From Chlamydiota bacterium (GTDB taxonomy: Bacteria; Chlamydiota; Chlamydiia; Chlamydiales; SM23-39): a stretch of DNA of 61,092 nt. The notes under the pieces are model-generated. The model had not been told where the DNA came from. It saw nothing but the letters and a program-made list of their open reading frames with translations, and searched no databases. A program made the position numbers and the translations under genes. Shown piece after piece: positions 56,701-58,416 of this stretch (position 1 is its first letter; each line of letters opens with the position of its first letter). The stretch spans positions 1 through 61,092 of the forward strand of contig DAIDIZ010000044.1 of assembly GCA_027451585.1 (NCBI GenBank), given 5' to 3'.

Positions 56701-57410
56701 AAGTGATCAAGCACAATGGACAGACGTTCTTAAGTTTAGGATCGCTTCTTTCAGCCCTACAAACAGATGATGAGACCTCCGTCATCCTAACTCCTAAAAT
56801 CATCACCCAAGATGGAAAAACCTCTTCGATTTTCGTAGGGAGCAACGTTCCCTTTGTGGGATCTTTTGTCAACACAAACGGAAGCAATACGGTCCAGACC
56901 TCAAATATTGAATACCGCGACATTGGGCTCAACCTAACGATCACGCCGGTTCTTGGCAATTCTGACATTGTGACGCTCGATATTAGCCTCGACCGATCCC
57001 AGACTCTCACCGATTTACGAGGGAATCCCAACGCGATCAATTTTAGCAACACAACCGCAAATGGAATTGTTACCAGTAAAACGACCATGGAAACAACGGT
57101 GCACGTCCCCGATAAGAACTTCCTGATTTTAAGCGGTTTTGTCAATAATTCGAACGTCAAGTCGACCTCAGGAATCCCGTGTCTAGGAGGGCTTCCTCTC
57201 ATTGGGGCAGCGTTTTCCAAAGACAATAATACGATGAATAACCAAAATATCGTCATCTTCTTAAGGCCCCACATCATCAACTCTCTTGAAGATCTTCGCC
57301 GTGTAACAGCTGACCAAGAAGATGCCTTCCGCGACCAACAAGGAACTCCATTTCTCATCCGCCAATTCGATGAAGGGATGGAACTGATCAAATCGCTTGA
57401 AGATGAATAA
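53799..57410 (+). CDS. sctC: T3SS outer-membrane secretin SctC (CdsC), unusually long (1203 aa) with expanded N-domain array
   Basis: Signal peptide ILFFFGLFSAHFSFA, an N0-like domain, and about 9 ring-building-motif-like domains. The secretin core starts at QVFIEMLVIETN and contains GIPCLGGLPLIGAAFS. Confidence 0.95.
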   Translation: MTHKKRIYRSILFFFGLFSAHFSFAEEACSSIKEGYTINYNTVSIIEYIHFASKICNTNFIYNKDELNFTVSVVSDAPITPENVLATLVQVLRIHGLMLLEQDNNLVIHRSPDVKQIGKLVTEKNQEGNSPIVTRIFRIAYAKPDSVAAVIRPMISSEAILETLPETRQLILSDVTVNVDKVASLIEILDSPHAPLQIKSFDVTNGRIETIIDIATQIMTPLTQGNPFLIVPQLLANRVFIVSTPELVDKALEILNDLNIPPQQEEKGQKKISPENVFVYKIEHRSGTDIISSLHSIADNIARSGVPEGDLLETIKTAHFVPQTNSIFFSGSSHSLSKIKEILASLDTPMKSEGSDSTRVGQSNFFIYKPKYQKEEALLNAIREVTDDLKKNKFSEPSFLQALQSLKWIKTNNSFLFTGESDAIKKVEELVVSLDREGVEEKKNLRPNYYIYKLQHTSADVIEEDLDNLVKSFKASGVKDSRLIHAIENIRHVKETNSFLITGDPQIVDEVKQLLTDYDYPRASCKSAQSNFLMYKPQHVSANQMEKSLKEVSTNFKKADLADPNLLTAIESIKYIEATNSLLFTGTPDALQKLQILIKDIDNQGQTTSPIQHLGKISFLLYKIKHANGTQILASIKTMSSDLRKSGAADKEFIGALQSAKYIKETNSILFTGAEEALQRVEAFTAQFDVQGQCPRLGPDDCPVVATNFFAYKPISLTGPDLETITSDFADNLKISGLIDPEFFTAIQSMRWVEQTQSLIFTGTPKALDQIKQLITSFDVPSNIPVGSMPKTSSEPSIQGLDNTNFLVYKLQFHKGDEIQSALRQIAKDLITTQATVNQNLLNCINSIQWIQITNSLLCSGDQDTLARLRDLIKSLDIPLKQVFIEMLVIETNLLNALEFGLEWGGKYKYRNKFQGSLNNITPPPTGGPCAIPEVLNQLNNYTPQDPMPVLTNNIPFNCGFDLGIIGQVIKHNGQTFLSLGSLLSALQTDDETSVILTPKIITQDGKTSSIFVGSNVPFVGSFVNTNGSNTVQTSNIEYRDIGLNLTITPVLGNSDIVTLDISLDRSQTLTDLRGNPNAINFSNTTANGIVTSKTTMETTVHVPDKNFLILSGFVNNSNVKSTSGIPCLGGLPLIGAAFSKDNNTMNNQNIVIFLRPHIINSLEDLRRVTADQEDAFRDQQGTPFLIRQFDEGMELIKSLEDE

Positions 57411-58416
57411 AGAAGCAACTGCAAAGATCAGTCAAAACAACTCCCAAAATCGCCTACCCTTAAGTTTTGCAACTGCCTCTAGATGGATTTTTCCCTTTTT
57501 TTTGCTCTTGGCAGGATGTTACCGAGTTCCTGACAAGATTGAGCCGAGGATCAACTACCAGATCCAAGAGCAACACTTTGCGAAACTCTCCAGCGCATTT
57601 CCCCCCTTAAATCCAGAGGAGAAGAATACGGACTGGGCAAAAGAGTACATAATCGCGCGCCACTTTGCAGATGAGTTAGACCTTTACCGAGCGGTATCGA
57701 CCTTCAAACGAGCCCAAATCCTTCTTGGAACTGAAGAGAAAGAAAGAAGACTTGAAATCCAATATGACATTCTCCTTTGCTACTACTTGGGGGGGCGATA
57801 TGATGAGGCCATCGAAGCCTTTGACAAGAGCGATCTTGCTTGCGTCGATAAAACTTTTCCCGCCTACCACGATCTCCTTCTTGTCCTATACGAATGCTAC
57901 CGAGAAATGGATTGTCCAGAAAAGCAACACAGGATCGATGAACTGATGGAAAAATCGTATCCTGATACAGCAGAAAAGCTCAAACTCTCAAGGGCGCTAA
58001 GAGAAGGGAACCTCCCTGAGATCAGGACCTTTGCGGAAGGATTCCAACACTCCTCCTATCTCGACGACCTGCTTACCTATTATGAGAGCCAAAGAAAATC
58101 GGTCCCAACAGCCCAATTACTCAATGCGATGCTTCCAGGAGCCGGTTACCTCTACATCGGGCAGAGGAAGTCAGCCTTCACCGCCTTTTTACTCAACGGT
58201 CTTTTCATTACAGCAGCCGTCCAGTTTTTTCGGCACGGACATACAGCCGCCGGAATCATCACGGCTGGATTTGAGTCAGGATGGTATTTTGGAGGAATTT
58301 ATGGGGCAGGAGAAGAAGCCAAGTTCTACAACGAAAGAATTTACGAAAAGAAAGCCTCTTATGTGCTCAACCAATACAATCTTTTTCCCGTATTGATGAT
58401 GAAATATGAATTTTAG
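57403..58416 (+). CDS. TPR-repeat lipoprotein with C-terminal hydrophobic helices, overlapping the sctC stop
   Basis: Lipobox FFLLLAGC, TPR-like helices (YRAVSTFKRAQILLG, YYLGGRYDEAIEAF), and C-terminal LPGAGYLYIGQRKSAFTAFLLNGLFITAAV. The ATG lies 8 nt inside sctC. Confidence 0.6.
   Translation: MNKEATAKISQNNSQNRLPLSFATASRWIFPFFLLLAGCYRVPDKIEPRINYQIQEQHFAKLSSAFPPLNPEEKNTDWAKEYIIARHFADELDLYRAVSTFKRAQILLGTEEKERRLEIQYDILLCYYLGGRYDEAIEAFDKSDLACVDKTFPAYHDLLLVLYECYREMDCPEKQHRIDELMEKSYPDTAEKLKLSRALREGNLPEIRTFAEGFQHSSYLDDLLTYYESQRKSVPTAQLLNAMLPGAGYLYIGQRKSAFTAFLLNGLFITAAVQFFRHGHTAAGIITAGFESGWYFGGIYGAGEEAKFYNERIYEKKASYVLNQYNLFPVLMMKYEF

Follow-up and report, generated by a model that had tools for sequence, protein, structure and literature searches.

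A lipobox-bearing TPR-hairpin protein encoded beside the chlamydial injectisome secretin is probably an inner-membrane partner of an exported YidD paralogue

Introduction

PilF, PilW and Tgl, the pilotins of the secretin PilQ, are lipoproteins built of tetratricopeptide repeats (TPR), whereas YscW, MxiM, InvH and ExsB, lipoproteins from injectisome gene clusters, are small and not TPR-built. YfgM exemplifies periplasmic TPR proteins that are anchored in the inner membrane and work where substrates leave the translocon; the TPR domain of LapB is cytoplasmic. Canonical YidD, the membrane protein insertion efficiency factor of E. coli (PF01809/TIGR00278), is a small protein of the cytoplasmic face that is encoded with rnpA and yidC and assists YidC/Sec-dependent insertion from the cytoplasmic side. 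Here, we report on a gene for a TPR protein with a C-terminal two-helix hairpin (P0001, hereafter the TPR-hairpin protein) that follows the injectisome secretin gene sctC in a Chlamydiota bacterium, and on the YidD-family gene directly behind it. The stretch analyzed, i.e., the window, is the 61,092-nucleotide contig DAIDIZ010000044.1 of assembly GCA_027451585.1.

An original prediction, made from the letters of the window, had proposed P0001 as an injectisome pilotin of the PilF/PilW type, with the caveat that its hydrophobic C-terminal helices might mean an inner-membrane tether or a different role; it had also stated that no pilotin was known in Chlamydiota. The last statement agrees with the literature, in which the operons of C. 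trachomatis for its type III secretion system (T3SS) contain no pilotin (PMC4682100). P0001 resembles PilF, PilW and Tgl in that TPR repeats come after a lipobox and that its gene adjoins a secretin gene. It differs from them in its conserved two-helix membrane hairpin, which a soluble all-TPR body would not have, in lacking specific sequence or fold similarity to them, in belonging to a wider family that shows no secretin linkage in the loci read outside Chlamydiota, and in its probable retention in the inner membrane. With YscW, MxiM, InvH and ExsB it shares the predicted lipoprotein character and the origin from an injectisome gene cluster, but it is 337 residues long, all-helical, equipped with the membrane hairpin and without a PDB match to them. 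We propose, with a probability of roughly 0.6, that P0001 is a periplasm-facing, inner-membrane-anchored TPR scaffold paired with an exported YidD paralogue, i.e., the chlamydial member of a widespread envelope module.

Architecture of the TPR-hairpin protein

P0001 is laid out as an export signal, TPR repeats and a C-terminal two-helix hairpin of the form KSPxxAxxLxxxxPGxGxxYxG. The features of the gene and of its predicted partner are as follows.

57403..58416, plus strand: TPR-hairpin lipoprotein gene (P0001), 337 residues, ATG at 57403 and TAG at 58414-58416 (homologues; AlphaFold model)
57403..57519, plus strand: signal peptide with lipobox L-A-G-C, ending in Cys39 (sequence reading; family conservation)
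57613..58131, plus strand: domain of TPR-like helical repeats (residues 71-243, approximately), predicted periplasmic (model helices; profile match; fold match)
58135..58374, plus strand: PGxGYxYxGQ motif and two helices, residues 245-324, TM2/DUF5683-like, predicted inner-membrane anchor (invariant positions; hydropathy; fold matches)
58375..58413, plus strand: conserved C-terminal tail closing in a nearly invariant Phe (P329 and F337 nearly invariant)
58406..58867, plus strand: exported Cys-less YidD paralogue (P0002, yidD2), 153 residues, predicted partner (PF01809 45.6 bits; TIGR00278 66.5 bits)

A first database yielded 1056 homologues (E<=1e-3) and a second 1798 cluster representatives, so that the gene is no chance open reading frame (ORF). 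A TTG at 57397 is a less likely start than the ATG at 57403. The n-region of the signal peptide is unusually long (about 27 residues) and is followed by a hydrophobic core, residues 28-39, that closes in L-A-G-C with the Cys39 codon at 57517-57519. The lipobox is conserved in the family: its pattern is found in 71 of 78 diverse homologues and two more were recognized by eye (at least 73 of 78), and the frames at the loci of 32 relatives nearly all show a short basic N-terminus, a hydrophobic stretch and an A, S or G followed by C at the equivalent place. In a few family members, a type I signal peptide replaces the lipobox.

On its own, P0001 scores 16.8 bits against Pfam TPR_1, under the cut-off of 27.8, while a profile of the 78 homologues run against PDB sequences reaches consensus TPR proteins at E 1e-28. 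The alignment of these 78 homologues also underlies the AlphaFold model, which has a predicted local distance difference test value (pLDDT) of 93.2 and a predicted template modeling score (pTM) of 0.85; the model is all-helical, with helix pairs over residues 77-243 and then two helices at 255-277 and 281-324, and DSSP assigns a strand or bridge residue pair near each chain end (62-63 and 334-335). The long n-region, hydrophobic core and lipobox, the TPR-like helix pairs and the two hydrophobic C-terminal helices of the original prediction are therefore real features of this protein.

The fold matches in the PDB are generic TPR proteins (Tom70, BamD, LapB, YbgF and SycD) with flat VIA Z scores of 11-12.8, the range expected for helical repeats, which indicates generic TPR similarity. 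PilF, PilW and the T3SS pilotins appear neither among the listed matches of the PDB profile search (E<=10) nor among the best 50 matches of Foldseek or of VIA. BamD (YfiO) and LapB share the generic fold and, with Z about 12, belong to the top structural matches from bacteria, but P0001 scores only 14.1 bits against the BamD model TIGR03302, whose cut-off is 81.4; a Bacteroidota relative lies barely over the Pfam YfiO (PF13525) cut-off (25.8 versus 25 bits). In overall architecture, i.e., a periplasmic TPR domain tethered to the inner membrane, P0001 resembles YfgM. Its predicted anchor, however, is the C-terminal hairpin together with the lipid and not an N-terminal helix, in which it differs from BamD, YfgM and LapB.

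The hairpin is where the family is conserved most strictly. Ten of the 11 invariant positions in the 78-sequence alignment (P245, G246, G248, T260, N265, G293, W294, G297, G301 and N310) fall in the PGxG motif, in the hairpin helices or in the helix directly after, and the eleventh, E81, is in the TPR domain. This concentration argues for an inner-membrane anchor; it speaks against a pilotin, which would be expected to conserve a secretin-binding groove and not a hydrophobic hairpin. The caveat of the original prediction is thus the better reading. The first hairpin helix is strongly hydrophobic (Kyte-Doolittle maximum of 1.71 in a 19-residue window), and the second is glycine-rich with milder hydropathy (family mean 0.77). 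Two hydrophobic helices inserted via Sec/YidC would, from what is known of Lol sorting, hold a protein in the inner membrane, and P0001 is probably retained there by the same logic. The DSSP residue pairs near the two chain ends suggest that the C-terminal tail may pack back onto the N-terminal region, which would place both ends of the hairpin on one side of the membrane.

The hairpin resembles TM2 (PF05154) and DUF5683 proteins in its PGxGxxYxG motif followed by two helices and in fold-cluster matches to P0001 residues 74-331. The likeness to TM2 holds at the fold level only, below Pfam detection: P0001 has no TM2 match at E<=1, and a Bacteroidota relative scores 18.9 bits, below the cut-off of 27.9. 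Some chlamydial genomes contain a second, weak match to the hairpin region (G012:C73:11059-11298; G117:C101:217-435; L131, G180:C1:90262-93501). In one family, f27 (L028, G104; G084:C3:19063-20118), the match to P0001 is split into query residues 26-202 and 218-337 within a frame of 379-397 residues, which points to extra sequence inserted after the TPR domain and ahead of the hairpin.

An exported YidD paralogue as the probable conserved partner

P0002 is a member of the YidD family. It differs from canonical YidD in carrying a signal peptide and a C-terminal extension and in having none of the four conserved cysteines; the canonical YidD of the same genome is encoded on contig 36 (105.5 bits). 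Signal peptide, EPWGKDA motif and Cys-less core are kept in the paralogue across chlamydial families, f26 excepted. The motif stands directly after the signal peptide in almost all chlamydial families (L002-L032), and canonical YidD is without it. In f26 (L029, G083:C2:128500-143500, 7178-8417), the paralogue still contains the first cysteine pair (C-D-F-Y-P-T-C-S), and its TPR-hairpin neighbor bears a type I signal peptide in place of a lipobox; for the chlamydial pair, this condition may be ancestral.

Our Chlamydiota sample comprised 151 genomes, and the TPR-hairpin gene is conserved in almost all environmental chlamydiae: it is found in 122 genomes that cover all 26 families other than f20, where it is missing from every genome (0 of 27). 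The YidD paralogue lies directly downstream in 27 of 31 judgeable chlamydial loci; in family f19, it is 12-15 kb distant. The two genes co-occur across the phylum, in every family but Chlamydiaceae. Of the 122 genomes that carry the TPR-hairpin gene, 118 match PF01809 twice, and all 28 scored genomes without it (26 Chlamydiaceae, one f12, one f7) match it a single time. Since the genomes are related, this corresponds to a single clear joint loss, and perhaps two others, not to 28 independent events.

The family without the gene, f20, is the Chlamydiaceae, with genomes of 1.0-1.4 Mb and a gene order around pkn5-cdsC that matches C. trachomatis CT673-CT680. At its locus, pkn5-cdsC is followed by convergent genes of 358 and 175 residues, which would be mcsB and mcsA by that order, and then by frr, pyrH, tsf and rpsB (named by eye). 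The TPR-hairpin profile has no match at E<=10 in three complete genomes of this family, in which pkn5-cdsC is intact. Chlamydiaceae thus keep the secretin CdsC without the TPR-hairpin gene and without the YidD paralogue.

A chlamydia-type TPR-hairpin gene is also present in three metagenome-assembled genomes (MAGs) of 1.7-2.4 Mb labeled Verrucomicrobia or Verrucomicrobiota (SZAS-16, SZAS-17 and REEB169; L129 in G180, L153 in G326, L154 in G322). Two of them match the chlamydial profile at E 1e-126 to 1e-128 and L129 has the complete trio of secretin, TPR-hairpin gene and YidD paralogue; all three are probably mislabeled chlamydiae.

Relatives outside Chlamydiota

Outside Chlamydiota, where the genomes searched were those reached through canonical YidD loci, P0001 has homologues whose genes are adjacent or fused to a YidD-family gene in three further lineages, and no other trait of the TPR-hairpin family is conserved between phyla as well as this association. 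Myxococcota members, which consist of a signal peptide, TPR and a KSPxxAGxLSxxPGxGQxY hairpin, are matched by the chlamydial profile over both TPR and hairpin at E 1e-15 to 1e-25; an exported YidD-like gene is directly upstream in six of 14 loci and lies above the PF01809 cut-off where tested. All five full-length matches in Bacteroidota are YidD-associated, four of them in the order yidD-like gene, first TPR-hairpin gene, second TPR-hairpin gene, and one (L146) as a fusion, i.e., a single ORF of 412 residues with signal peptide, YidD domain, TPR and hairpin (PF01809 47.5 bits; family profile E 1.8e-25). A Chlorobiota MAG has the same operon of exported YidD and TPR-hairpin protein.

Fold clusters of the AlphaFold database (AFDB) lead to the same pairing. 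Aligned over P0001 residues 36-337 are proteins of 487 and 316 residues named YidD and one of 375 residues named a "hemolytic domain" protein, an older name of PF01809; these are natural YidD/TPR-hairpin fusions. Further matches are TPR, TM2 and DUF5683 proteins. The exported YidD-like proteins of the non-chlamydial lineages keep the first cysteine pair and resemble the chlamydial paralogue in lacking the C-terminal CxCHP motif. Non-chlamydial homologues and natural fusions carry type I signal peptides and no lipobox, so that they cannot be Lol cargo. P0001 is most likely the chlamydial variant, single-copy and putatively lipidated, of an exported-YidD/TPR-hairpin module that is undescribed in the literature searched, in which we found nothing specific on a chlamydial pilotin, an exported YidD or the TPR-hairpin gene.

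No secretin was detected in the 22 non-chlamydial loci (about 5 kb on each side where the contig allows). The neighbors of the Bacteroidota module (acyl-CoA dehydrogenase, HEPN/NTase, ACT with DUF711, LemA, TPM) are unrelated metabolic or stress genes and give no functional hint. In the four Bacteroidota loci L147-L150, ORFs of about 142, 453, 201 and 255 residues follow 3' of the three module genes in a constant order in three loci, the last two being absent from L149; in L147, they encode an ACT-domain protein, DUF711, LemA and a TPM-domain protein.

A profile of the hairpin only, run against a protein database for short non-chlamydial relatives, returned only fragments of chlamydial genes. 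In other genomes, this hairpin profile hit two proteins that were rejected as orthologues because they share the PGxGxxY motif alone: a Pro/Gln-rich Myxococcales protein (L130) and L131, a membrane protein of 318 residues with a PGLGHVYLG motif that we take by eye to be a CAAX/CPBP protease. The PGxGxxY motif is a reusable membrane module.

Position beside the secretin

Within Chlamydiota, the pair is tied to the secretin by gene order. The remaining features of the locus are as follows.

53799..57410, plus strand: sctC, injectisome secretin, 1203 residues (Pfam Secretin 115.9 bits; Secretin_N in eight stretches; GspD N0 domain)
57403..57410, plus strand: overlap of sctC and the TPR-hairpin gene, 8 nucleotides, translational coupling (direct sequence reading)
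58406..58416, plus strand: overlap of the TPR-hairpin gene and the YidD paralogue, 11 nucleotides (direct sequence reading)

The operon reads sctN-sctO-x-sctQ-sctC, TPR-hairpin gene, yidD2, where x is a gene of 380 residues. The sctC stop is the TAA at 57408-57410, and the ATG at 57403 lies, as the original prediction had stated, 8 nucleotides inside the end of sctC. A convergent SulP/STAS transporter gene is located 3' of 58867, indicating that the operon ends with the TPR-hairpin gene and yidD2; a scan of 53400-59300 for promoters and terminators gave counts no higher than those in shuffled sequence. The secretin of the window scores 336.9 bits with the GspD model for type II secretion systems (T2SS) and 103.9 bits with the SctC model, which agrees with the published grouping of CdsC with type II secretins (PMC4682100). 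After the secretin domain, a C-terminal tail of 40-60 residues is present in both this SctC and the Chlamydiaceae CdsC; being found with and without the TPR-hairpin gene, it does not separate the hypotheses.

The expected co-occurrence with sctC holds within the phylum: of 32 chlamydial loci, drawn from many families, 29 have a secretin directly upstream of the TPR-hairpin gene, the stop and start often overlapping. In the loci read from Myxococcota, Bacteroidota and Chlorobiota, none of the relatives has a secretin beside it. In three loci of families f23 and f19, 1.3-4.4 kb separate the two genes. Two of these gaps hold ORFs unlinked to secretion (three orphan genes in one, an ankyrin-SET gene in the other) and the third, of 1.3 kb, a single ORF of 85 residues with a sub-threshold match. 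The ankyrin-SET protein, of 584 residues and encoded at 4996-6750 of the f19 locus L023 (G174:C1:426000-441000), looks like a eukaryote-type effector. An f22 genome (L020, G150:C1:1009000-1024000, about 4213-11186) has the tightly packed, single-strand order secretin-a, TPR-hairpin gene, secretin-b, yidD2; secretin-b has 936 residues and is 64% identical to secretin-a, and the arrangement shows the pair interleaved with the products of an old duplication of the secretin gene.

Discussion

In our model, P0001 would be exported and lipidated at Cys39, giving an N-terminal anchor; its TPR domain would lie in the periplasm, and its TM2-like C-terminal hairpin would dip into the inner membrane and return, giving a second one. 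Lipid and hairpin together would make P0001 a doubly tethered periplasmic platform. The exported YidD paralogue would be its conserved partner, and we infer for the pair a location at the inner membrane's outer face. There, by analogy with cytoplasmic YidD and with YfgM, its probable task is to handle envelope proteins that have just been exported. In Chlamydiota, both proteins would be made from the same predicted transcript as SctC, with translational coupling, so that the ten-domain secretin is a plausible client; the interleaving of two secretins with the pair hints likewise. Chlamydiaceae absence and the missing secretin linkage elsewhere weigh against it, and we regard SctC as a client as a tentative proposal, at somewhat worse than even odds.

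Several observations weigh against the model of an envelope scaffold paired with YidD2. The sctC adjacency is kept across families of only 33-45% identity, which, together with the interleaving of two secretin paralogues with the pair in one genome (G150), is more in line with a role specific to the secretin than with a general one. The joint loss in Chlamydiaceae is essentially one event, and neighboring genes could go in a single deletion. The second hairpin helix is just moderately hydrophobic, making full membrane insertion uncertain. When the Bacteroidota YidD-TPR-hairpin fusion was folded (unpaired alignment), pTM was 0.44, the linker was disordered and the YidD domain was not confidently docked. 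Localization, lipidation and interaction with YidD2 are deduced for every member of the family.

The alternative that survives best is a pair for general housekeeping of the envelope that is functionally unconnected with type III secretion, its place after sctC being an inherited order in slowly rearranging genomes. It overlaps with the model that we prefer and departs from it only on the question of SctC as a client. Other phyla have the module without secretins, inserted genes can break the sctC adjacency, and Chlamydiaceae lost the pair and yet keep a working T3SS; against this, the overlap of sctC stop and TPR-hairpin start is kept across deep divergence. We consider such complete independence from secretion rather doubtful, though it deserves serious attention.

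Unlikely, and slightly more so, is an assembly factor of the inner membrane dedicated to the secretin, i.e., the TPR-hairpin protein and YidD2 recruited specifically to act on the very long SctC as a chaperone or to aid its positioning or insertion. Such a factor might be comparable to the inner-membrane T2SS secretin helpers GspA/GspB (ExeA/ExeB) and not to a Lol-sorted pilotin. The 29 of 32 loci with sctC directly upstream and their frequent overlaps, the G150 gene order with its two secretins, and a TPR domain that is BamD-like at the generic fold level would suit it, as would the lack of any other known pilotin candidate in chlamydial T3SS operons (PMC4682100). But the pairs of Myxococcota, Bacteroidota and Chlorobiota are not beside secretins, Chlamydiaceae assemble CdsC without the pair, and the insertions in the f23 and f19 loci split sctC from the gene.

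A classical pilotin of the PilF/PilW/Tgl kind, i.e., an outer-membrane TPR lipoprotein that binds the secretin and pilots it via the Lol pathway, is very improbable: the conserved lipobox, the TPR body and the coupling to sctC stand from the original prediction, but the mechanism probably does not, given a hydrophobic hairpin that holds nearly all invariant residues and misfits a Lol-sorted outer-membrane lipoprotein, the type I signal peptides of homologues and fusions in other phyla, the absence of PilF and PilW from the listed PDB profile matches (E<=10) and the best fold matches, the pairing with YidD, and the Chlamydiaceae that retain a secretin without the gene. The module is most likely not a Lol-dependent outer-membrane pilotin.

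One more speculative version joins the preferred scaffold model to the secretin. In environmental chlamydiae, the TPR-hairpin protein and the Cys-free exported YidD might form a Lol-independent secretin assembly system that was recruited from an ancient envelope module and replaced in Chlamydiaceae when CdsC gained an extra N-terminal domain. We hold this unlikely as it stands; if a secretin assembly route outside Lol were true, the finding would gain in interest.

An attractive but probably wrong label, that of a PilF-type pilotin, is thus removed from the chlamydial gene, and a testable alternative is offered in its place: two conserved proteins that would act as a pair at the periplasmic side of the inner membrane and be produced along with the secretin. 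The chlamydial genes are tied by this comparison to an uncharacterized exported-YidD/TPR module of several diderm phyla, and since the module occurs in tractable Bacteroidota and Myxococcota, genetics there could reveal the role of the chlamydial pair. That Chlamydiaceae have cleanly lost the two genes sets the envelope biology of pathogenic chlamydiae apart from that of environmental ones.

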